From: an uncultured Lachnospiraceae bacterium
GTDB lineage: Bacteria; Bacillota; Clostridia; Christensenellales; UBA1242
Reading direction: 5' to 3'
Assembly (NCBI GenBank): GCA_964368755.1
Contig: CAYJCR010000001.1
Coordinates: 70,074 to 134,073, forward strand
Length of the DNA stretch: 64,000 bases
Shown: one piece after another, positions 44,738-56,597 of the stretch
Position numbering within the stretch: the stretch's first letter is position 1
How the letters are laid out: each line of letters begins with the position of its first letter
Made by a program: the position numbers and the translations under genes
The notes under the pieces: model-generated
Database searches by the model: none
Told to the model about the DNA's origin: nothing
The model's input: the letters and a program-made list of their open reading frames with translations, nothing else

Positions 44738-45208
44738 ATGGAAAATAATGGAGAATACGATTCTTTTGAAGATGAGATAGAGTCTATCAATCATGGAGAT
44801 TATTGGGAGACAATTGTGCCACGTGTGACCGAATGCAATGTCGATATAACACGTGTATATTACACAGATAGTGAGCCAGTTGACGAGACTGATGCAAGAT
44901 ACAACAGTATGGTAATATTGGACAAATACGAGGATAGAGGAGTGGACCCAATGCGTAATTTCCTCAACTATACAATAATGAGGGCATCTAATGTCGTTAC
45001 TTTGAAACATATCTTGCCAGCTATTGATGATATTAAGACTATTGATGATATTAAGACTATTGATGATATTAAGACTATTGGTGAAGTTACTTTGACATTT
45101 GTTGGAGATAGAGAATTTGACTCAGACACAACCAACCTTGCTGATCTATACAAGTCAAAGGGGTGTATAGTATCCTTTGACCCAACTATATGCGAAGGCG
45201 ATATTTAA
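44738..45208 (+). CDS. hypothetical acidic protein with IDDIKT x3 repeat
   Basis: 156 aa with an AAGGAGAG RBS at the ATG at 44738 and a terminator at about 45226-45258. No family recognised. Confidence 0.5.
   Translation: MENNGEYDSFEDEIESINHGDYWETIVPRVTECNVDITRVYYTDSEPVDETDARYNSMVILDKYEDRGVDPMRNFLNYTIMRASNVVTLKHILPAIDDIKTIDDIKTIDDIKTIGEVTLTFVGDREFDSDTTNLADLYKSKGCIVSFDPTICEGDI
45023..45081 (+). repeat. 18-bp perfect tandem repeat x3.2 (ATTGATGATATTAAGACT)
   Basis: Copies at 45023, 45041 and 45059 plus a partial fourth. In-frame, encoding IDDIKT. Confidence 0.95.
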
Positions 45209-45378: not shown

Positions 45379-45453
45379 TGGCTGGGGTGGCAGGATTCGA
45401 ACCTACGCATGCAGGAGTCAGAGGCCTGAGCCTTACCACTTGGCGACACCCCA
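45379..45453 (-). tRNA. tRNA-Gln (anticodon CTG)
   Basis: 75-nt cloverleaf folded by hand, with acceptor TGGGGTG/CACCCCA, anticodon loop CTCTGAC, T-loop TTCGAAT and encoded CCA. Paralogous to the Gln(TTG) gene at 46675. Confidence 0.9.
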
Positions 45454-45585
45454 ATGAATAATACTCACATATAATAGCAAAACAAATACTCGTTGTCAAG
45501 TCTAGTAAAGATTTTTTGATAACGAACTCAAAAAAATATTGAAGTTTACATAGCAAAAAATATTTTTGCAATTTATATTTTTTTA

Positions 45586-46230: not shown

Positions 46231-46284
46231 TTGATTAAATGACATAATAAAAAACAGACACTGTATGTCTGCTTTTTTTATATT

Positions 46285-46586: not shown

Positions 46587-46663
46587 GTGCCAGTAGCTCA
46601 GCTGGATAGAGCATCGCCCTTCTAAGGCGAGGGTCAGGGGTTCGAATCCCTTCTGGCACACCA
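46587..46663 (+). tRNA. tRNA-Arg (anticodon TCT)
   Basis: 77 nt with acceptor GTGCCAG/CTGGCAC, anticodon loop CTTCTAA and encoded CCA. Confidence 0.9.
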
Positions 46664-46674
46664 TTTTATTATAT

Positions 46675-46749
46675 TGGGGTGTAGCCAAGTGGTAAGGCAC
46701 GAGACTTTGACTCTCGCATGCGTAGGTTCAAATCCTGCCACCCCAGCCA
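46675..46749 (+). tRNA. tRNA-Gln (anticodon TTG)
   Basis: 75 nt with acceptor TGGGGTG/CACCCCA, anticodon loop CTTTGAC and encoded CCA. Confidence 0.92.
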
Positions 46750-47549: not shown

Positions 47550-47665
<116 letters not shown>

Positions 47666-47673
47666 ATTAATAA

Positions 47674-47778
47674 GCGGATCTCGAACGGTGCGTAAAGAAA
47701 AGCTACCCCAATGGGTAGGTTTTTAGCACCCGGCGTGATAGCGAGCCACAACTTCTGGCACCAGCCCCGAAGCGGAGC
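47674..47778. repeat. ~100-nt tRNA-associated element, copy A
   Basis: Shares the blocks GCGTAAAGAAAA-hairpin-TTTTTAGC...GCGTGATA...hairpin...TCTGGCACC with copies at 55974 (same orientation) and 56330 (inverted). Confidence 0.8.
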
Positions 47779-47836
47779 GAGTCCCATCTTTCACCCCAAG
47801 AACGAAGACTTATGTTATATAAGTCTTTTTTTGTTT
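47778..47836 (+). repeat. direct repeat copy 2 (orphan 3' end of tRNA-His plus terminator)
   Basis: 58 of 59 positions identical to 47607..47665. It lacks the 5' three-quarters of the tRNA. Confidence 0.95.
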
Positions 47837-48005
47837 GAGCAAAATAATGTATATATATACTTATATTTATCAAAATAATAACATATATGTTGGTTTTTGT
47901 TTGTCAATTCTTTTTTGAATTGATATAATACATCTAGATTAATTTTGTAGCTAGCATTGGACATATGATTATATACAATTGAAGATTGATATTAGGAGCA
48001 ATACT

Positions 48006-51000
48006 ATGGGAAAAAGATGGAAAATAATTTTATCAGTACTTTCTTGCATTATTATACTAGCAGGAGCCGGAGTAGGACTATACTTTGGTTTGAGTGACAA
48101 AGGTAATGGTGGAGGAAGTAGTAGCCCACAAAGTAGCAGTGGTACTTCTCAAGATCCGGTAGCAACCTACTATACAGTTACTTATGCTAATACAGCTATA
48201 CCAAATGCAAGGGTAGAGGCTGGATCTTTGTTATTGGAGCCAACTTCTGGAACAGCAAAGGATAAGTATGTATTCTTGGGCTGGTATAAAGATGCCGACT
48301 TCTCAACTCAATGGGATTTCGTCAATGACAAGGTCAATGCCAATACTACTTTGTATGCAAAGTATGAGAGAGCAATATACGGTATGAGAATCAATACTGA
48401 TAATGTTGAGACTGAGTTCGACAAAGGTGAGATGACAGATTATAATGGACTTGTTGTCGAGATAATGAAGAGTGATCTCAAATATTACACTTTGCCAGTT
48501 GGTGACTATACAATTACAAGCAATCGTACAGATGTCAATGTTGCAGGTTGGTACACTATTACAGTACAATACAGAACTTTCCATAGCGATTATGAAATTG
48601 AAGTTTTGCCAACAACCGAGAAAGGTTTGTTCTGCTATGTCAATGACTCATTGGTATACAGAAGTTATGTTGATAATGGTGCTGGGCTACCAGAAGAACT
48701 AGAAGAGCCAACATATCCACAAGCTGGATATGAATTTGCCGGTTGGTACACAGATAAAGGTTGTACCACAGCTTTTAGTGCAAGTACTATTACAGCCGAT
48801 ACAGTTTTGTATTCAAAATGGACAAAGAAGTTCCTTATTACTTTCAACAATGTTGATGTTCCTGGACAATATGCCCTTGCTGGAGAAAAATATTCATTGC
48901 CAAATAGTGCATTGATAGCAAAGACAGGTTATGATCTTGTTGGATTCTTTACAAATGAAGACTACACTTTCTATAGTGTTGACGGCGACGGTGTTGTAAC
49001 TGGAGAAGTTCAAGAAGATAGTATTAGTGTTGAAGGATTGGCAAAGGAAATACATAACACAAATAATGAATATTATGTACTATACTCTAGAGTTGGCACA
49101 AATGGATCAAATTTGGTAAAAACTCCTGTATATAAGAAGGTTTATACTGGGAGCTATATCAAAAATGAGCAATCTATTACAGCAACAGAAGCTCACGATT
49201 TGTATGCAATATTTGAGCCAAAGACTTTCCGTGTTACTTATGCATGGAACAACAATTCTCTTGATGATTACAAATATGTAACATATAACCAAGCTTATGG
49301 TGAATTACCACCTCTTGAAGATGGAACATATATATCAGAAGGTTGGATGTTGAACGATACAAGAATAACAAAAGATAGTATTGTTAAAATAACTAGTGAT
49401 GTACAACTTATTGCTCAAGTAGTTGAGAAAGAAGAAGTTGATAGAAATCTATACGTAAGATTACCATATCTAAAAGTTAATTTGGCTGATGTTAATTATC
49501 ACGTATATCGCAAATCTTACTACAGAGCTCCAGAAGGCGAGGGTGATGCAACATATGTAGAAGAAGCCTTTGTATTCAATAATAATAGTTTTGCAAAATA
49601 CTTATTGCTTAATAGCACAACAGTATTAGACGGTAATACCTTTGTGTTTGATAGCAAAACATTTACTTACGATTCAACTGCAAGAACACTTACTCAAGAA
49701 GAAGCTTTGGTAGGAACTGGATATGGAATGTTCTCTTACCAATCAGGCGATAACAAATATGCAATAGACGTATCCGGTACGAATGTTAAGATATTTGCTA
49801 GTTTTGATGCTTCTGCAAACGTTGTTGCTGATAGGTATATGTATGAAGTTTCTAGTAAGACAATATACACGAATTATAAGTATGAAGTATACAACGGATA
49901 TACATATGATTATTTCTTAGATGAGTTCCTAGATGATTTGTTTGCAAGATATAGTGATGCAGCTTGCACTAGAATATATGCAGGTAGCAAACTGTTCGCA
50001 AAAAATATGAGCGAAGATTACTATGAAGAATGGCTAGAATTGGTACGTAATAAAACTATAGTTGGATATATATTTGAAGTACCTGAGGGCTCAGATGTCA
50101 GAGGATTCTATGACGAAAAAGATGCTCAGATCAAATATGGTGCTATTATCAATCGTCCAGACAATTTTGGTATAGGCGAAGATATAACCTTATCAATTAA
50201 GACATGTATTCCTGTCAAAATCAATTTGTCTGTCAATGGTGGAACATTAACTCCAGCAATAACATACGTTGACGGAATAGTTGGAGATTTATTCCCAACT
50301 CTTCCTACTCCTTCCAAAGTTGGTTATGCATTCGGTGGTTGGTATTATGACACAAGCTACAGAGTACCTATCCAAGAAGGGACGTTGGTTCAAGGTAATA
50401 ACACTCGAGTATATGCTAGATGGGACAAACTCGCTGAGATAACAGTAAGAGTATATCCTGATACTGCAGCTACAACGTCAATCGCAACTTATAAGTTCCA
50501 AGCAGGTTCTACATATGGCGCTAACTTCCCAAGTGCTTTGGTACGTGAAGGATATGTATTTAAGGGTTGGTATTCTGATGTTAATCTTACAACTGAGGTC
50601 ACTGCAGACGATGTTGTTAAGACAAATGTCTTATATCCAAAATTCGAATCCATATATGTAGAGGTTACACTTAACTATGTTGATACTCCTATTGGTAACG
50701 GGCATATTACAGTTAAGTATGGAGATATGTATGGAGCACTTCCAACCATGATTAGCAAAGAATTTGCAGATGGTGGTTGGTATGCCGATGTGGGTTATGA
50801 GACCAAAGTTACATCAGCTACAAGAGTACAAAATACTGAGGCACACATCTTGTATTTCAGAAAACTTCCTTATCATCAAGTAGTCTTTACAACTTCAGCA
50901 ACTGATGTGGTTGGCGAGGGATATAAATATAAGAAAGCCCTTCTCGATACAATTCTTATACCAAAGAGTCCATATACTAGAGATGGTTATGTGTTCGCAG

Positions 51001-54000
51001 GTTGGTTCATTGATGCAAATGATAATGGAATAATGGACGGAAGTGAAGAGATAATTGAACCTAGAGTAAAGTTTACTTTGGTAGAGGATGCTGATATTAG
51101 TTTCCATGCTTATTGGGTCAAAGAAGCTACTTTGGTATTTAGGAAAGGTGCAGAGTCGGCAACTGGTGCTAATCCATTGAATCTTATCATAAAACAAGGT
51201 GAATCAATAACTCTTCCACAAATACCTTATGATATGACAAGCTCTTCGGCAAACAATTGGATAACTGTATGCCCAGACGGAACAGTAATGGCATTTACTT
51301 CAAGTGGAGCAGCTTCATCAAGTGGTTTGTCAATTAACGATATTATGTTTAAGATTTGGTGTTATGACGATCAAGATGATTGGACACTTGTTTCTATGAA
51401 CATGTTGGGCGAATTTGAGTATAACGGAAAGAAATTTACATACACTGATGGAACGATAACCTGTGGTGGTGTATGGGAACTTGAAGATGGTAAGATTGAT
51501 ATCGAATCAGACGATATGCTTGATGCTATATATGAATACTTCACTGGTGGTGTATGGGAACTTGAAGATGGTAAGATTGATATCGAATCAGACGATATGC
51601 TTGATGCTATATATGAATACTTCACTGGTGGTGTTGGAGAACAGATCCCAATTGATTTTGAATTGTTGATAAACAATGCTCACAATCAGTATCTTCCATA
51701 TCTTGTACTCTATGAAGGAAATATTGTTGAAAGTAGAACAACTATATGTGAAAATGAGTTCTTAATATCTGCAACAGGCATAACTAATGAAACTCTAGAT
51801 ACTAACGCAACATTAGTCTCTGGATACAGCAATATTTATAGTATTGAGATGTTTGAGACCACAGTGTTCTTGCGTCACGATACTGAAGAAAACAAATTAT
51901 ATCTTGGAGTATCGGTATTATCAACTTTTACAGATGATATTATTGGTGGCAAAGGAGAACAGATCCCAACAATCAAATACACATTTGAGGAAGGATTTGT
52001 TATTGACAACTTGACTCAGCTTGGTATTGATACTAGAGATGAAGGAGTTGACGGTGCATATTATTATTCTAACGAATCAGAATGGGTAGATTTTGTTGTG
52101 TTAGATAAATTAACTTTGACTCCAAATTGGGAATATACAATAAATATCAATAATTATGCTCCAGACGGTACTTTGGCTAGCGTAACAGCACAGCAGTCAG
52201 GAACAAAGGGTAGCGTTGTTGATTTGAACAACTACAAGGGTAGCTACAACTATTGGGAAATCAAAGAAGTTTTCTTCAAAGACGAGTTTAATAACATAAC
52301 ACCAATTACTGTTAATGAAGATGGAATTATTAGCTCTTATTCAATTACGACTGCGGGAACGATCAATATTGTATATGAAAAGGTAGTTGTTTTGTCTTTC
52401 AACGAAGGGACCTTTGGTACAATAGAGAATATGGTGATCAGCGAGAGCAAAGTTTCTGAAGCTAGCAATGATCATCAAGGACTATTCAATAATGCGGGTG
52501 CTTACTTTGATTTTGACAACAATACATATGACTTCACAAACAATGGTCAGACAGTTAATTTTACCAGTTATGATGAAGCTTACAGCACTTTAGTAAACTT
52601 ATTTAATTATGTTCCTGATAACTCTAGCGAGTCATATGGCAATGGAGATTTATTATCGTACTCTTCTAATATATTTACTGTCACAAGAGCTTTGAACCAA
52701 TATACATATAGTGTCTATACCGTCTTTGACAGTGGTGAGCAACAGATATTCGGAGATTCAAACAGACAAGCATATGAGACTGAATATATCAATCTCCAAT
52801 TGCTTATAGATAATATATTAGAAAGCAACAATCAATATAAATACAACAATGCAAAATGCAGTGTTGATGGTAATGAAAGCGACATAGATGATATCAGTAA
52901 TTTTGTTGTAACAACATCTGACACGCAGGTGGTTTTGTATTTTGTAACAAAAAGTCAATATTCTTATTCAATATATGGATTTAATTGTGACACACAAGAC
53001 CGTGATGCAACTACAATTGCTACAGGAAGTGTCTATGAGAATCAATATGTTGACATGTTTGATACTTTGAAGCAATGGTTGGATCTTACTGAAAACCTAG
53101 ACAAAGCATATGACTATACAAGATCTATTAGCGAACTAGAAGTTCAAATTACAAGCGATGGTCAAGTAATAGAGTTGCCTTACAAAGCAGCACAAAGTTG
53201 TTCAATCACAGTTTATTATTACATTGATAATGGAGGGTCCCAAACATATACAAACTTCGATCAGTTGTATGATGGAAGGATAATAGATTTACAAACTACG
53301 TTTATTTCTCCTATTATTAGTAGCAGTTCTGATATTGAATTTGATGCTAATACAACTATGTTAGAAACATCACATATTGTACAAGCAAACGAAACTATTA
53401 ACTTATACTTCAAATCAATCGTAGTGCCTACTGTATCTTATGCTATAAACTACAGTTATTCTGATGGAACTAAGACTGGCACAATTGATAGTGGCAGTAT
53501 TAATTCTGGATCGGCTATAAATATTAGAGAGATTATAGGCTCTTTCTTGGATAATCATAACAGTTTGGATTATAGCTATAACAGCATGTATATCGACGAA
53601 GGTGATATGGAGACATATTCTCTATATGAGAGCAATGGTGATTTTGAGTTAACGGTGTACTTTGTTCCAGCAACGATGTACGGTTATACGGTTTATTATG
53701 TTATTGACGAAAGTGGTTCACAGTATTATACTTCAGATACCATTGCAACATCTCGCTATCTTGACTTGCAATCAATGGTAGATAGTATTTGTTCTAATTA
53801 CAGTTGCACTTTTGATAGTACAGCTACAGGAATATCAAATTTGTCAGAATATAGCGTACAAAATGATGGAGAGAGTATAACGTTGCATTTTAGTACTCAA
53901 CAGGGAACAAGTAGTTATGCTTACACAATCTTTGTTAAACACTATAATGCTGGCCCTAGCGAAACTGGTGATCAGTTAGCAAGTGGTACAGATAGTAGTA

Positions 54001-54935
54001 TTAATCTCACAAGTTATATTAATATTTGTCAATCGGATGTACTAGAAGTAGTTGGTATTAAAGTTGATGGTAATCCTGTTAATAGTAATACAGTATCTAT
54101 TACAAGAGAGAATACTATTATTACCATAGAATGCTGTTATAAGGTTATTCTTCAATTTGACTCTACAGTATATGGAGAAATAATTAACAAGACTTTTGTT
54201 GAAAATGATATGCCAAGTGAAGACGACTTTGTTAAAGATTATAATATAACACTCAATATCAACAACTGGAGTTCATATGATGCTTCATATGGAGCGTATG
54301 GAGAGATAGATTACTCATACAATGGAGCATATTATTCTGTTGCTTCTAATATTGAAAATTATGCTATGTTGAGACAATGCATTATGAGTATATTTAACAA
54401 CTGGCAAGAAGACTTTATGAATAGTAACACCTTCACTCTTACAAGAATTTTTTCAAAGTTGACAATAAAATCTATTGCTCCCGACGGAACGGAATTTGAA
54501 TCAATAACAGACATCGCAGATGGTGATGATATTAGCAACCAAGGTCTTGATATCTACTATACAATTACTCCAAGCAAATACACAGCAGTAGCAGATAATC
54601 GTATGTATTGGGCTGTTAAAACTGTTTCGTATCAATATGGTGATAATCCATCAACGACATTGCCATGGGGGAATATTGATTCATGCTATAATACATACAA
54701 AGGTGGTATTGTTACTATTACATACGAAAGAGCTCTTAATGTTGCTTTTGATGGATTTGACGAGATAGGACTTACCCCATCCCAGACGACTATTTCTGAA
54801 TCAACATTGACAACTTTGAGTACACAAGTAAGTGATTCTTCATATGTTGCCGGTACTATATGGAATGAATTGGAGATCTGGAGCAGTATTGATTTTGACA
54901 AGTACTGTTTATCCATAAAATATTGTAACCCATAA
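48006..54935 (+). CDS. giant N-terminally anchored surface protein with Listeria-Bacteroides (Flg_new/InlB B-repeat type) repeats
   Basis: 2,309 codons from the ATG at 48006 (TAGGAG RBS). A signal-anchor (KIILSVLSCIIILAGAGVGLYFGL) and Ser-rich linker come first. At least 8 repeats follow with the pattern [YF]xFxGW[YF]xD...LYAKW. The C-terminal half is N/S/T/Y-rich and modular, with no LPXTG motif seen. Confidence 0.85.
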   Translation: MGKRWKIILSVLSCIIILAGAGVGLYFGLSDKGNGGGSSSPQSSSGTSQDPVATYYTVTYANTAIPNARVEAGSLLLEPTSGTAKDKYVFLGWYKDADFSTQWDFVNDKVNANTTLYAKYERAIYGMRINTDNVETEFDKGEMTDYNGLVVEIMKSDLKYYTLPVGDYTITSNRTDVNVAGWYTITVQYRTFHSDYEIEVLPTTEKGLFCYVNDSLVYRSYVDNGAGLPEELEEPTYPQAGYEFAGWYTDKGCTTAFSASTITADTVLYSKWTKKFLITFNNVDVPGQYALAGEKYSLPNSALIAKTGYDLVGFFTNEDYTFYSVDGDGVVTGEVQEDSISVEGLAKEIHNTNNEYYVLYSRVGTNGSNLVKTPVYKKVYTGSYIKNEQSITATEAHDLYAIFEPKTFRVTYAWNNNSLDDYKYVTYNQAYGELPPLEDGTYISEGWMLNDTRITKDSIVKITSDVQLIAQVVEKEEVDRNLYVRLPYLKVNLADVNYHVYRKSYYRAPEGEGDATYVEEAFVFNNNSFAKYLLLNSTTVLDGNTFVFDSKTFTYDSTARTLTQEEALVGTGYGMFSYQSGDNKYAIDVSGTNVKIFASFDASANVVADRYMYEVSSKTIYTNYKYEVYNGYTYDYFLDEFLDDLFARYSDAACTRIYAGSKLFAKNMSEDYYEEWLELVRNKTIVGYIFEVPEGSDVRGFYDEKDAQIKYGAIINRPDNFGIGEDITLSIKTCIPVKINLSVNGGTLTPAITYVDGIVGDLFPTLPTPSKVGYAFGGWYYDTSYRVPIQEGTLVQGNNTRVYARWDKLAEITVRVYPDTAATTSIATYKFQAGSTYGANFPSALVREGYVFKGWYSDVNLTTEVTADDVVKTNVLYPKFESIYVEVTLNYVDTPIGNGHITVKYGDMYGALPTMISKEFADGGWYADVGYETKVTSATRVQNTEAHILYFRKLPYHQVVFTTSATDVVGEGYKYKKALLDTILIPKSPYTRDGYVFAGWFIDANDNGIMDGSEEIIEPRVKFTLVEDADISFHAYWVKEATLVFRKGAESATGANPLNLIIKQGESITLPQIPYDMTSSSANNWITVCPDGTVMAFTSSGAASSSGLSINDIMFKIWCYDDQDDWTLVSMNMLGEFEYNGKKFTYTDGTITCGGVWELEDGKIDIESDDMLDAIYEYFTGGVWELEDGKIDIESDDMLDAIYEYFTGGVGEQIPIDFELLINNAHNQYLPYLVLYEGNIVESRTTICENEFLISATGITNETLDTNATLVSGYSNIYSIEMFETTVFLRHDTEENKLYLGVSVLSTFTDDIIGGKGEQIPTIKYTFEEGFVIDNLTQLGIDTRDEGVDGAYYYSNESEWVDFVVLDKLTLTPNWEYTININNYAPDGTLASVTAQQSGTKGSVVDLNNYKGSYNYWEIKEVFFKDEFNNITPITVNEDGIISSYSITTAGTINIVYEKVVVLSFNEGTFGTIENMVISESKVSEASNDHQGLFNNAGAYFDFDNNTYDFTNNGQTVNFTSYDEAYSTLVNLFNYVPDNSSESYGNGDLLSYSSNIFTVTRALNQYTYSVYTVFDSGEQQIFGDSNRQAYETEYINLQLLIDNILESNNQYKYNNAKCSVDGNESDIDDISNFVVTTSDTQVVLYFVTKSQYSYSIYGFNCDTQDRDATTIATGSVYENQYVDMFDTLKQWLDLTENLDKAYDYTRSISELEVQITSDGQVIELPYKAAQSCSITVYYYIDNGGSQTYTNFDQLYDGRIIDLQTTFISPIISSSSDIEFDANTTMLETSHIVQANETINLYFKSIVVPTVSYAINYSYSDGTKTGTIDSGSINSGSAINIREIIGSFLDNHNSLDYSYNSMYIDEGDMETYSLYESNGDFELTVYFVPATMYGYTVYYVIDESGSQYYTSDTIATSRYLDLQSMVDSICSNYSCTFDSTATGISNLSEYSVQNDGESITLHFSTQQGTSSYAYTIFVKHYNAGPSETGDQLASGTDSSINLTSYINICQSDVLEVVGIKVDGNPVNSNTVSITRENTIITIECCYKVILQFDSTVYGEIINKTFVENDMPSEDDFVKDYNITLNINNWSSYDASYGAYGEIDYSYNGAYYSVASNIENYAMLRQCIMSIFNNWQEDFMNSNTFTLTRIFSKLTIKSIAPDGTEFESITDIADGDDISNQGLDIYYTITPSKYTAVADNRMYWAVKTVSYQYGDNPSTTLPWGNIDSCYNTYKGGIVTITYERALNVAFDGFDEIGLTPSQTTISESTLTTLSTQVSDSSYVAGTIWNELEIWSSIDFDKYCLSIKYCNP
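51465..51626 (+). repeat. perfect 81-bp tandem duplication inside the giant gene
   Basis: 51465-51545 is identical to 51546-51626, encoding GGVWELEDGKIDIESDDMLDAIYEYFT twice in-frame. Confidence 0.97.
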
Positions 54936-55127
54936 ATGCAGATGATAGATTACGGTTCAAACATTTATAGTGAGACAGACTTAATAAACTCATTGAGAGA
55001 AGCGGATGGAAAGAATGGTGCTATCTATGATATGGTTCTTAGTTCTTATAATTTGACCTATGGATTAGGAGATTATGAGCAATATAGTAACAACACAATT
55101 TATATTTATTTGCAAAACAATAAGTAG
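54936..55127 (+). CDS. 63-codon ORF in frame with, and abutting, the giant gene stop (possible severed or read-through C-terminus)
   Basis: The ATG at 54936 directly follows the TAA at 54933-35 in the same frame, with no separate RBS. Composition (N/Y/S/L-rich) resembles the giant protein. The terminator follows only after this ORF. Confidence 0.4.
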   Translation: MQMIDYGSNIYSETDLINSLREADGKNGAIYDMVLSSYNLTYGLGDYEQYSNNTIYIYLQNNK

Positions 55128-55131
55128 TAAT

Positions 55132-55166
55132 AAAAAAACTACCTTATACCAAGGTAGTTTTTTTTG
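55132..55166. terminator. bidirectional rho-independent terminator
   Basis: CTACCTT-atacc-AAGGTAG stem flanked by A7 and T8, between convergent genes. Confidence 0.8.
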
Positions 55167-55170
55167 TTAA

Positions 55171-55731
55171 TTAACTATGATTGTGAGCATAGATACGGAT
55201 ATCAATCTCTCCGTATTTTCGCTTATCAATCTCTGAGAACGGGTTAGATGAAGAATACTTTTCTGGCTTATTCAGCTCAGACAAACTTTCCCATATTATG
55301 ATACCATCAGGGGCCAGAAGATTGTATTCGTATATCTTCGATATAGCTGATTCTGCAAATATGCTGTTATATGGTGGGTCAAGGTATATGATATCGAATT
55401 GTTTGCCTTTTTTGTAGTATTGAAGCAAGGCTGTATTATAATCTTGCATAGATACATAAGCTTTAATGTTGAGTGAACGCAAGTTGTCGCTAATAAGTTT
55501 GCAACTATCTTTGTTGCTATCAACAAAGCAGACTTCTTTGGCTCCTCGACTCAAACATTCTATGCCGATAGCACCTGTACCTGCGAACAAGTCTAAGACA
55601 ATGCTATCTGGGATATAACCACTTATTACATTGAATATATTCTCTTTGACTCTGTCCGTTGTTGGCCTAACACCTTCATGTTTTGGCGATAATATCTTGC
55701 GACCTTTGTACAATCCAGTTATAACTCTCAT
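55171..55731 (-). CDS. rsmD: 16S rRNA (guanine966-N2)-methyltransferase RsmD
   Basis: MRVITGLYKGRKI, RPTTDRVKE, LDLFAGTGA and DPPY motifs. Confidence 0.9.
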   Translation of the reverse strand: MRVITGLYKGRKILSPKHEGVRPTTDRVKENIFNVISGYIPDSIVLDLFAGTGAIGIECLSRGAKEVCFVDSNKDSCKLISDNLRSLNIKAYVSMQDYNTALLQYYKKGKQFDIIYLDPPYNSIFAESAISKIYEYNLLAPDGIIIWESLSELNKPEKYSSSNPFSEIDKRKYGEIDIRIYAHNHS

Positions 55732-55878
55732 ATTGACTCCTATGCTATTATTATAGCACTAATACAACAGTAGATACAAATATTATTTTGGATAATACTT
55801 AACGGAAAATGGTTGATGATAGATATGATTCAACCCCTAAACACTATTTGTAATGTGTACTTGGGTAGAAAAGCAGTT

Positions 55879-55969
55879 ATTACTCGGGGTGAGAGCCCAT
55901 GATTAAATAAGATAATAAAAAAAGAGCAAGACTGTCTGTCTTGTTCTTTTTGATTGTTTGGTGGGTCAT
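55879..55969. repeat. 91-bp direct repeat copy 1 (terminator plus 3' acceptor end of tRNA-Lys, minus-strand sense)
   Basis: ATTACTCGGGGTGAGAGCCCATG...TTGTTTGGTGGGTCAT is roughly 85 percent identical by eye to 56141..56231. Confidence 0.9.
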
Positions 55970-55973
55970 TGGG

Positions 55974-56071
55974 CGCGACGCGTAAAGAAAACAACCCGGT
56001 GTGGTTGTTTTTAGCCAAAGCGTGGGAGCGACTTGTCGCGGTCTGGCACCGACAGGTGTCGAACCCCGGCC
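55974..56071. repeat. ~100-nt tRNA-associated element, copy B
   Basis: CGCGACGCGTAAAGAAAA-hairpin-TTTTTAGCCAAAGCGTGGGA-GCGACTTGTCGC-GGTCTGGCACC... It is flanked by antisense tRNA-Lys pieces: acceptor 3' end on the left, T-stem/T-loop on the right. Confidence 0.8.
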
Positions 56072-56140
56072 ACAGTATAAAAATATGCTAATGCAAACTT
56101 AAATCCTAGTTGTTGTGTGTGCTTGTGTGGAATGGTAATC

Positions 56141-56231
56141 ATTACTCGGGGTGAGAGCCCATGTTTAAATAAGATAATAAGAAAAGAACAAGACAGACAG
56201 TCTTGTTCTTTTTGATTGTTTGGTGGGTCAT
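56141..56231. repeat. 91-bp direct repeat copy 2
   Basis: See 55879..55969. This copy belongs to the intact tRNA-Lys(CTT). Confidence 0.9.
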
Positions 56232-56296
56232 CGGGGGCTCGAACCCCGGACACCCTGATTAAGAGTCAGGTGCTCTACCAACTGAGCTAATAACCC
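56221..56296 (-). tRNA. tRNA-Lys (anticodon CTT)
   Basis: 76 nt with acceptor GGGTTAT/ATGACCC, anticodon loop CTCTTAA, T-loop TTCGAGC and encoded CCA. A terminator follows downstream on the minus strand. Confidence 0.92.
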
Positions 56297-56329
56297 AAGT
56301 ACTAAATATTAAACGAACTAATCCGTTAC

Positions 56330-56424
56330 GGGTGTCCGGGGTAAACCCCTCCGCTCGCAATGAATTGCTATATCACGCTTTGGCTAAAAACTTGCCACTG
56401 GCAACTTTTTCTTAACGCATCGCG
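56330..56424. repeat. ~100-nt tRNA-associated element, copy C (inverted relative to A and B)
   Basis: The minus strand reads CGCGATGCGTTAAGAAAAA-hairpin-TTTTTAGCCAAAGCGTGATA-GCAATTCATTGC-... The inner end is an antisense copy of tRNA-Lys positions about 44-53. Confidence 0.8.
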
Positions 56425-56471
56425 CCCTGATTAAGAGTCAGGTGCTCTGTCACACCTAGAGCTAATAACCC
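56425..56471 (-). pseudogene. truncated tRNA-Lys(CTT) 5' half (positions 1 to ~45) with altered D-loop
   Basis: GGGTTATTAGCTCTAGGTGTGACAGAGCACCTGACTCTTAATCAGGG, preceded by the same upstream AAGTAC flank as the intact gene. It abuts element C instead of a T-arm. Confidence 0.8.
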
Positions 56472-56597
56472 AAGTACCATATAGCGATGTTACGAGTTGT
56501 ATTATATATTTTATTACAACATTTGTCAAGGTAATTGCAGAATTTTTTGTTAAAAGTTTTTATCACATATTTATATTATTTTTCATAACTTTTGTAT

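Follow-up and report, generated by a model that had tools for sequence, protein, structure and literature searches.

Large integrative elements classically land at tRNA and tmRNA genes. Among the closest described systems, the tRNA/tmRNA-integrating genomic islands and their integrase-less derivatives (the cis-mobilisable elements, CIMEs, of streptococcal ICEs) resemble the elements reported here in the choice of site, the restoration of the gene, the direct repeat that starts in the T-loop, tandem accretion at one site and a (here presumed) dependence on functions acting in trans. As in such islands, the insert is bordered by direct repeats that correspond to the 3' part of a tRNA or tmRNA gene, which itself is left intact. 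However, the present elements are only 80-200 nt long, carry no genes and have a conserved structured core; in addition, they include an inverted copy of the target that extends over the breakpoint, and a mirror form upstream of the gene duplicates the 5' part. Neither a parent element with an integrase nor a conserved recombinase near the chromosomal copies listed was found.

Three copies of the element (A, B and C) are present in the window, that is, the whole stretch of 64,000 nucleotides that was analysed. They would most plausibly belong to a family of non-autonomous mobile DNA elements that is widespread in Clostridia and whose members are small (about 80-200 nt) and encode no protein, a reading that is put forward tentatively, at slightly under an even chance. 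The family has apparently not been described so far.

The three copies in the window and their layout

The window holds exactly three copies, A at 47674-47777 (+), B at 55974-56058 (+) and C at 56330-56424 (-). The pattern GCGTWAAGAAAA-N8-30-TTTTTAGC has three matches in it (47690-47727 and 55980-56015 on the + strand, 56383-56418 on the - strand) and none in 100 shuffles. A covariance model (R1) made from 90 family members scored the copies at 56-60 bits (A 56, B 60.1, C 60.2), and the next-best match in the window was a generic terminator with 16.7 bits. The general plan consists of a core GCGTTAAGAAAA, a variable hairpin, TTTTTAGC, GCGTG and a second variable hairpin, and an outer stem closes the unit.

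Several claims of the first-pass annotation could be checked at this level. The ordered blocks that it had proposed, GCGTWAAGAAAA, a hairpin, TTTTTAGC and GCGTG, are present in each of A, B and C, and ARAGORN, a repeat search and inspection of the sequence agree that all three copies abut fragments of tRNA-His or tRNA-Lys, as it had stated. The copies themselves stand, but their limits had to be redrawn: the units are longer than proposed, copy A having an extra 13-nt inverted arm (47674-47686), and the last 23 nt of copy C (56330-56352) are an inverted tRNA arm and not part of the core. The features are compiled in the table.

Table. Features of the two element regions of the window, with positions, strand and basis of the assignment
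Feature	Position	Strand	Basis
tRNA-His(GTG), intact, host gene of copy A	47551..47627	+	ARAGORN; Rfam tRNA 61 bits
Direct repeat 1, tRNA-His T-loop (CGAGTCCC...) to CCA plus trailer terminator	47607..47665	+	repeat search
Copy A, 5' arm GCGGATCTCGAAC, imperfect reverse complement of tRNA-His T-loop and T-stem 3' strand	47674..47686	+	sequence; flank-to-tRNA alignment
Copy A, conserved core: GCGTAAAGAAAA, hairpin 1 (47703-47718), TTTTTAGC, ACCCG, GCGTG	47690..47737	+	pattern, model 56 bits
Copy A, 3' domain ATAGCGAG...CGAAGCGGAG	47738..47777	+	alignment of 21 type I members
Direct repeat 2, second tRNA-His 3' part plus terminator	47778..47836	+	repeat search
Second tRNA-Lys 3' end plus 120-nt trailer, including terminator	55838..55976	-	repeat search, sequence
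Copy B, type II: starts CGCGAC, core 55980-56024, hairpin 2 (GCGA-CTTG-TCGC) 56028-56039	55974..56058	+	pattern, model, sequence
tRNA-Lys(CTT), intact, copies B and C on either side	56221..56296	-	ARAGORN; Rfam
Copy C, 3' arm, tRNA-Lys positions about 43-65 in reverse complement, T-loop degenerate	56330..56352	-	comparison with intact tRNA-Lys
Copy C, type II: CGCGAT, core 56374-56418, hairpin 1 56392-56404, hairpin 2 (GCAA-TTCA-TTGC), then GCGAGCGGA	56353..56424	-	pattern, model, terminator scan
Degenerate duplicate of leader and tRNA-Lys positions 1-46 (5' half 56425-56474)	56425..56529	-	sequence

Copy A lies between the two tRNA-His direct repeats, which are 59 nt long and 98% identical, and its 3' domain ends in GCGGAG, as it does family-wide, where it joins tRNA position 56. 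The tRNA-Lys region is more complex. The 3'-end repeats of this gene (55838-55976 and 56100-56238) comprise 139 nt with 85% identity, and a degenerate inverted T-arm is found at 55883-55899, inside the duplicated trailer. Copy B is a nested insertion that interrupts the T-loop of the already duplicated tRNA-Lys 3' fragment in the orientation opposite to the tRNA, with antisense Lys positions 62-76 on one flank (55959-55973) and antisense positions 47-58 on the other (56059-56071). Copy C is an example of the mirror form, which lies upstream of the tRNA and breaks it after position 46; its 3' arm spans the breakpoint after G46, and two further loci (L090 and L083) are arranged likewise. A perfect TTGACA-17-TATAAT promoter at 56501-56529 (-) reads into copy C (promoter scan, 12/12).

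A sequence common to copies A and B, TCTGGCACC, matches the 3' end of the tRNA-Arg(TCT) of the window. The idea that elements carry fossil 3' ends of earlier host tRNAs was rejected, the family-wide count being 4 hits compared with a shuffle mean of about 4.7.

A tRNA-linked family in Clostridia

The description of the elements as a three-copy family is correct for the window, but not overall: the family scan retrieved at least 135 copies in at least 118 loci. The matches listed all come from Clostridia-type MAGs, often with several copies per genome; Christensenella, Anaerofustis stercorihominis and Desulfitobacterium are examples of carriers. Two blocks, of 12 nt and 8 nt, hardly vary between classes of Firmicutes. 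The hosts comprise at least 25 tRNA species (about 27 anticodons), and tmRNA is the host at two loci (L016 and L117), which establishes a distribution over many different target genes. The intact host tRNA is found 24-130 nt upstream on the same strand, and where tRNAs are clustered, the element usually comes after the final one. Tandem arrays are common; their periods are 170-380 nt, and they often close with a partial unit.

The architecture of the occupied loci is likewise established. The usual order is an intact tRNA, a terminator, a short reverse-complement copy of the T-loop and T-stem, the core, and a direct repeat that runs from C56 to just past CCA; the intact gene is always retained. 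The arm, 9-23 nt long, reproduces the local tRNA in reverse complement from G53/51 outward and spans the breakpoint. It was found in the same form in the 64 tRNA-linked loci compared, and because it matches the local tRNA, its sequence changes with the host gene. The flanking repeats have no fixed length (22-34 nt or longer), but always start at tRNA position 56. At most loci they extend only 1-13 nt beyond CCA, and therefore the terminator and the spacer lie within the inserted segment. Terminators common to elements at different tRNAs were found in two genomes (Leu at L023 and Arg at L082, 25/25 nt; L001 and L029).

Both orientations of the core relative to the tRNA occur, types I and III being set against type II. 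Type II copies are preceded by GGG and type I copies by GAAC plus 2-4 nt. In type III and at L079 the arm ends with YTYGAAC and the repeat begins with GTTCRA, and the type I junction reads GCGGAG/CGA. The same core is also present between phage genes, where it may face either way with respect to its neighbours, and these phage-borne copies have no inverted termini in common.

The element is non-coding and multicopy. The first-pass annotation had found no associated open reading frame, transposase or integrase in the window, and across the at least 118 loci no conserved protein neighbour was detected; clustering of the 1071 ORFs from all loci yielded only housekeeping families and no conserved neighbour or recombinase, which establishes the absence of a linked protein at these loci. 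Similarly, no autonomous relative encoding a transposase was seen among the at least 118 loci listed or among 51 viral loci. The earlier statement that no Rfam family fits is in accordance with Rfam 15, in which only tRNAs pass the gathering threshold in the window; E-value scans of both element regions gave nothing below E=0.03 that overlaps the elements, and 24 related loci plus the window yielded only tRNA, tmRNA, 6S, 5S, T-box and Gut-1, none of them on the element. Literature searches with the motif string and with keywords turned up no relevant paper.

A number of further candidates were dropped. An antisense tRNA, a tRNA-derived gene, a group I-like intron with a terminal G, a K-turn and an IS91 insertion beside GTTC each lacked defining features or did not fit the layout. 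The sequences GCGUUAAGAAAA and UUUUUAGC resemble a Cas9 repeat:anti-repeat duplex, a likeness that was set aside, since the connectivity runs the other way round and there is no linked cas gene.

The family also has practical consequences. It breaks metagenome assemblies at tRNA loci, with two contigs (L119 and L121) stopping at copies A and B, and the tRNA pseudo-fragments that it leaves confuse annotation and the calling of prophage boundaries.

Covarying helices and the rival explanations

The compensatory changes that had been noted for hairpin 1 are found throughout the family. Among 90 distinct cores, 93.2% of the cells pair, compared with 76.2% in shuffles; double-change cells number 158 versus 38.5 in shuffled alignments, a value reached in 0 of 500 shuffles, and slid controls show 49-57% pairing, which establishes the covariation of this helix. 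For hairpin 2 the earlier claim applies to the B/C subfamily, in which at least nine different complementary stems occur, but the GCCA..TGGC of copy A is not clearly homologous. In all, three helices stay paired by way of many compensatory changes, and the strands at the junctions hardly vary. Minimal family members contain GCGAAGC, a sequence that forms an unusually stable DNA mini-hairpin. The terminator-like character of hairpin 1 was also reproduced, the scan predicting terminators on both strands of copies A and C, and its G+C-rich stem followed by a T-run is that of a predicted intrinsic (Rho-independent) terminator.

The first-pass annotation had offered two readings, a miniature mobile element or a structured RNA. 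The family has indeed turned out to be real, widespread, covarying and linked to tRNAs, and the evidence leans to mobile DNA over a strand-specific RNA, because the core occurs in either orientation, hairpin 1 has no G-U bias, a terminator is present upstream and a fixed -10 box is lacking. A structured non-coding RNA is the main rival, although an unlikely one. It could be a small RNA, with the 5' arm acting as an antisense seed or guide on the T-arm of the adjacent tRNA and with hairpin 1 as the terminator at which the transcript ends, or a cis-acting element of the tRNA transcripts; the junction sequences would then either be bound by a host protein or make up a catalytic or ligand-binding core, and the repeats of the tRNA would stem from the making or copying of the RNA. 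The covarying helices with their nearly invariant junctions would fit such an RNA, the invariance of the 12-nt and 8-nt blocks could equally mean that a conserved host factor binds RNA, and the complementarity of the arm to the intact target across the breakpoint is guide-like. In addition, GNRA tetraloops are enriched on the + strand (11 versus 2 in the 3' domain; the small type III hairpins have GAGA, GTGA and GCGA loops), the + strand folds about 7% more stably, hairpin 2 has two G-U pairs where the opposite strand would have A-C, and the invariant G16-U47 of hairpin 1 would turn into an A-C mismatch if read on the opposite strand. However, mismatches in hairpin 1 are more often A-C (21) than G-U (10), without strand bias, and hairpin 1 with its U-run would halt transcription midway, a further terminator being usually located just upstream of the element. 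Also at odds with an RNA are the lack of a fixed promoter (no -10 box is conserved at a fixed distance upstream of the arm across the family), the fact that the core faces either way with respect to tRNAs and phage operons, and the missing Rfam match.

Two other explanations were considered. A passive scar is quite improbable; on this reading, conserved att-flanking sequence would remain after prophages or conjugative elements have repeatedly integrated at tRNA and tmRNA genes, been excised and undergone internal deletion. A direct repeat of the tRNA 3' part from the T-loop onwards is the classical signature of integrase insertion, tmRNA is also a classical integration site, and some copies are located at prophage ends (L125, and L163 and L170, which adjoin lysins). 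Nevertheless, 0 of the at least 118 chromosomal loci listed had a conserved recombinase or, between the repeats, a large insert, the strict pattern had no match in 2.9 million viral contigs, BLAST searches against plasmid and phage records gave no match, and scars would not retain covarying hairpins and invariant blocks across classes. The L125 element is next to a partial tRNA and has a tyrosine integrase gene at a distance of 200 nt, but the repeat of that prophage begins near tRNA position 44 and not 56, and the element looks like a resident of the host locus and not a part of the phage. The earlier proviso that the sequence might be the conserved att-flank of a known integrative element family applies by half: the layout is att-like and some copies are at prophage ends, but no known family or integrase is linked. 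Very improbable is a specialised bidirectional terminator or insulator module, spread mainly by duplication and gene conversion and selected for ending tRNA operons and phage units. The prediction of a terminator on both strands for hairpin 1 and its A- and T-runs, the usual position behind the final tRNA of a cluster and the phage intergenic sites in either orientation would be in accordance with this function, but it would be redundant with the terminator that is usually found just upstream, and it leaves the invariant GCGTTAAG, AGC and GCGTG blocks, hairpin 2, the inverted arm and the tRNA repeat unexplained.

Possible mechanism and comparison with known systems

Non-autonomous mobile DNA thus being the preferred reading, the following mechanism can be proposed. 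The main lineages would insert at tRNA and tmRNA genes, breaking the T-loop (55/56) or, in the mirror form, the gene after position 46; beyond the element, on its far side, the displaced 3' or 5' gene part would persist as a direct repeat, and the near side would carry the 9-23-nt reverse-complement copy of the target across the breakpoint. The arm pairs with the start of the repeat, and therefore the unit can fold as a single long hairpin whose centre is the core. We infer that the element might move as such a folded single strand, in which arm and repeat would rebuild a double-stranded T-arm half-site, and that the enzyme would be a recombinase encoded elsewhere, acting in trans on the rebuilt site, as with phage CTX attP and integron attC. 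Any recombination model must explain why the arm and the repeat match each new tRNA. No empty site or presence/absence pair was recovered at an orthologous locus (exact-protein look-ups led only to contigs broken at the repeats, and a scan of metagenomes with the alanine racemase only relatives at 30-34% identity), and mobility is therefore deduced from the architecture. If the element is indeed mobile, it would show how far tRNA-targeting elements can shrink, to 80-200 nt with the gene restored and nothing encoded, and would point to a trans-acting enzyme in gut and rumen Clostridia.

It is also conceivable, although rather doubtful, that the inverted arm is a working guide, so that the element, its RNA or its single strand would find the target by pairing across the T-loop, and that the arm would be rewritten from each new target. 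A segment that is complementary to the intact target across the insertion point and varies by copy with that target is shared with the EBS/IBS pairing of group II introns and with the IS110 bridge RNA. In contrast to these systems, the element has neither an intron nor a bridge-RNA fold, no reverse transcriptase or DEDD recombinase is found nearby, and the guide role is suggested by complementarity. If true, it would be a very compact, protein-less, programmable, pairing-directed bacterial insertion module, and would form a new class beside group II introns, IS110 bridge RNAs and the guide RNAs of TnpB and IscB, nucleases encoded by transposons.

Like the element, MITEs, REP/BIME sequences and PATEs are short non-coding intergenic repeats that form hairpins, are found in many copies and in either orientation, and may act as terminators. 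As at IS200/IS605 ends, a hairpin is found near each end of the element, one at about 15 nt and the other at about 8 nt from its tip. However, the two hairpins differ in sequence and length, which does not agree with an IS200/IS605-derived PATE, whose similar subterminal hairpins are recognised by a Y1 (HUH-type) transposase. Such a PATE would also insert 3' of a fixed tetra- or pentanucleotide, whereas the bases before the element differ between type II (GGG) and type I (GAAC plus 2-4 nt). A MITE is also difficult to reconcile with the data: constant terminal inverted repeats are absent, the outer repeat being that of the local tRNA, and there is no short fixed target duplication. Unlike in MITEs, the outer stem is made of target sequence, and specificity for the tRNA T-loop is strong.

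Integron attC and CTX attP(+) sites offer a further parallel. They differ from the element in that attC centres are not conserved, whereas its core sequence strongly is, that the T-loop GTTCRA misfits GTTRRRY at position 4, and that a partner of the IntI or Xer type was not found; moreover, its cargo consists only of a tRNA 3' end and a terminator. Nevertheless, in both cases two inverted half-sites enclose about 60-150 nt that fold out as hairpins, the stems conserve structure over sequence, and arrays of units build up beside a fixed chromosomal site, and the inner ends of the element (...GAAC / GTTC...) come close to the R''/R' boxes RYYYAAC / GTTRRRY of attC, without a full fit to this consensus.

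The three window copies and their tRNA loci

The first-pass annotation had described a hairpin element with three copies in the window, and this can be affirmed: the element is real and present exactly three times in 64 kb, because the pattern GCGTWAAGAAAA-N8-30-TTTTTAGC matched three times in the window and never in shuffled sequence, and because a covariance model built from 90 relatives scored copies A, B and C at 56-60 bits, with all other window sites at 17 bits or less. The DNA belongs to a spore-forming member of the Clostridia with low G+C, with genes for SpoIVA, alanine racemase and RsmD, and also encodes a 2318-aa Listeria-Bacteroides-repeat protein (ORF 47979-54935). Inside this ORF lies a perfect, in-frame 81-nt tandem duplication of 27 codons (51464-51625), which looks recent.

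Features of the two tRNA loci carrying copies A, B and C; the Lys locus reads on the minus strand and is listed in that order
Feature	Position	Strand	Remarks
Intact tRNA-His	47551-47627	+	its own terminator next, then copy A
Copy A arm	47674-47686	+	13 nt; imperfect reverse complement of tRNA-His T-loop and T-stem
Copy A core	47690-47737	+	
Copy A 3' domain	between core and repeat		40 nt; GCGGAG at its end
Repeat of tRNA-His	47778-47836		C56 through terminator; 59 nt, 98% identical
Perfect sigma-70-type promoter	first in Lys locus	-	promoter scan
Degenerate copy of leader and tRNA-Lys positions 1-46	after promoter, before copy C	-	
Copy C	after the degenerate 5' copy	-	
Reverse complement of tRNA-Lys positions about 43-65	after copy C		23 nt
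Spacer, then intact tRNA-Lys(CTT)		-	120-nt trailer
Second, partial tRNA-Lys copy, positions 47-76	after trailer		copy B in its T-loop, opposite orientation
Second trailer copy	last in Lys locus		139 nt, 85% identical

Several further repeats were met in the window. The motif TCTGGCACC, common to copies A (47755-47763) and B (56041-56049), matches the acceptor 3' strand of the window's tRNA-Arg(TCT) (46638-46663), the match lengthening to CTTCTGGCAC in copy A; in a family-wide test, such fossil tRNA ends were not above chance. Both Lys trailer copies hold a degenerate inverted T-arm (56145-56161 and 55883-55899; minus strand TGGGCTCTCACCCCGAG, compared with the reverse complement of the Lys T-arm) at the type I arm position with no core after it; an older element may have left it behind. 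The sequence TTATTATNTNATTTAANCA directly follows the terminators in the tRNA-Gly(CCC) trailer (46232-46254) and in the tRNA-Lys(CTT) trailer copies (55900-55922, 56162-56184), and therefore the tRNA trailers of this genome seem to be assembled from one shared module. The genes for tRNA-Gln(CTG) and tRNA-Gln(TTG) (45379-45455 and 46673-46749) form an inverted pair, 88% complementary and 1.2 kb apart, that brackets a small tRNA cluster on both strands, and an 18-nt tandem repeat, CTATTGATGATATTAAGA, occurs in three and a half copies within an ORF (45021-45089).

Family size, layout and viral copies

A single scan of one genome per species with a 24-base pattern yielded at least 118 loci with at least 135 copies, and thus the proposed three-copy family, correct for the window, is far larger. 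Among the matches listed, all came from Clostridia-type MAGs, with many copies in several genomes; labelled taxa include Christensenellales, Acutalibacteraceae, Candidatus Fimenecus, Eubacteriaceae, Desulfitobacteriia and Syntrophomonadaceae. An intact same-strand tRNA lies within 130 nt upstream of 64 copies among the matches listed, with about 27 different anticodons, and the host gene is that of tmRNA at two loci (L016 and L117).

The usual order is intact gene, terminator and A+T-rich spacer, arm, core (conserved blocks, hairpin 1 and GCGTG), variable 3' domain and direct repeat of the gene. The arm reads as the local tRNA in reverse complement; because it begins at G53 in type I, or near position 51 in type III, and extends outward for 9-23 nt, it spans the breakpoint. 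In most loci the direct repeat runs from C56 to just 1-13 nt past CCA, so that the terminator and spacer are part of the inserted segment, and in two genomes elements at different tRNAs have the inserted terminator in common. Units are frequently arrayed in tandem, with periods of 170-380 nt, the last unit often being partial. Type II cores, among them copies B and C, start with CGCGAC and point the opposite way to the tRNA or tmRNA. A mirror arrangement upstream of the intact gene, with the leader and 5' part duplicated and the arm beside the intact gene, is found at copy C and at loci L090 and L083. One intact gene survives in every arrangement; the element caps the broken end of the truncated gene copy, and the arm pairs with that end across the core.

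The MAG RGIG1997 and one relative carry at least 14 type II cores, all identical, inside arrays of a ~49-nt unit, CCTCCCTTGTGAAAGGGAGG-TGGCC-TGAAA-GGCC-GGAGGGATTG, which is a second repeat family and whose second hairpin covaries too (loci L015, L018, L032, L040, L062, L072, L080, L089, L091 and L097). Locus L003 carries, directly downstream of a tRNA, two mutually inverted Gut-1 RNA motifs (995-1179; 60 and 40 bits) with three hairpins and UGAAA separators. Independent assemblies of the window's organism (Logan contigs L119 and L121, ERR5322706) break at copies A and B and at the repeat of the tRNA-His trailer; the family is a cause of fragmented metagenome assemblies at tRNA loci.

A relaxed pattern also matched the core in viral contigs, 29 of these reaching E<=0.001 with the covariance model. 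One group consists of host tRNA-locus copies at prophage ends, such as L125, where a tyrosine integrase gene, a partial tRNA (positions about 44-76), a terminator and the element follow each other, which looks like a phage integrated beside a resident element. The other group has no tRNA nearby: core, outer helix and hairpin 2 are again present, here in phage intergenic regions, and point either way with respect to the neighbouring genes; one example lies beside the portal gene of L167. A core variant with the outer helix CCCAAAG/CTTTGGG and no GCGTG block, with additional hairpins and a terminator on its flanks, lies between two large unannotated phage ORFs and recurs in eight gut viral contigs (L135, L138, L151, L152, L154, L157, L158 and L160).

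Covariation and the acting nucleic acid

Hairpin 1 occupies a constant position, with a stem of varying sequence. Over 90 distinct cores, 93% of cells were paired, compared with 76% after shuffling, and 158 cells carried double changes, compared with 38.5, a value reached in 0 of 500 shuffles; sliding the partner column lowered pairing to ~50%. At least nine different complementary stems were found for hairpin 2 (the variable hairpin after GCGTG) in the type II subfamily. Sequence listings reveal such changes also in an outer helix around an invariant GC...GC (TTTTTGC/GCAAAAA, GCCGC/GCGGC, CCCAAAG/CTTTGGG and versions with tandem G-A pairs), and from class to class there is hardly any change in the junction strands GCGTTAAGAAAA, TTTTTAGC, GCGTG and GCGGAG. 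GCGAAGC, a sequence that folds into a DNA mini-hairpin of unusual stability, is present in the minimal members.

The less favoured explanation is a structured, strand-specific RNA, in keeping with the enrichment of GNRA loops on the plus strand, the two G-U pairs of hairpin 2 and the slightly more stable folding of that strand. However, hairpin 1 mismatches are more often A-C (21) than G-U (10), hairpin 1 reads as a terminator on both strands in a terminator scan, a terminator precedes the element, no -10 box lies at a fixed distance upstream of it, and the core is found in either orientation relative to tRNAs. The balance of evidence favours an element that acts as DNA, probably folded as a single strand.

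Proposed mobility and relation to known systems

The best-supported reading is that of a mobile, non-autonomous element with specificity for the T-loops of tRNA and tmRNA genes, mobility being suggested by the architecture, the copy number, the ~27 tRNA species, the arrays and one nested insertion; exact-protein look-ups, which led to contigs broken at repeats, and one metagenome scan yielded no empty site. The element would insert into the T-loop and restore the gene, island-style. Arm and repeat would together restore a double-stranded version of the target half-site within the folded single strand, which would enable a recombinase supplied in trans to act on it. Every recombination model is weakest on the question of how arm and repeat come to match each new tRNA; because of this gap, a pairing-directed, guide-like mechanism may, though with lower probability, be at work instead.

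The annotation knew of no described element or Rfam family with this layout, and none came to light: Rfam searches with the window and related loci, BLAST against plasmid and phage records and literature searches by motif and topic gave no match. Its statement that no ORF, transposase or integrase is associated with the element concerns the window; around the family loci no conserved protein neighbour was found. MITEs have constant termini and a short target duplication, whereas the element has neither; genomic islands have an integrase, which the element lacks, although the gene is restored at insertion as in integrative islands. The inner arm ends (...GAAC / GTTC...) fit integron attC boxes only approximately. 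The family to which the element belongs is large and apparently undescribed; that the element is something categorically new seems unlikely, and it is filed with the small non-autonomous integrative or repeat elements, as a new variant.
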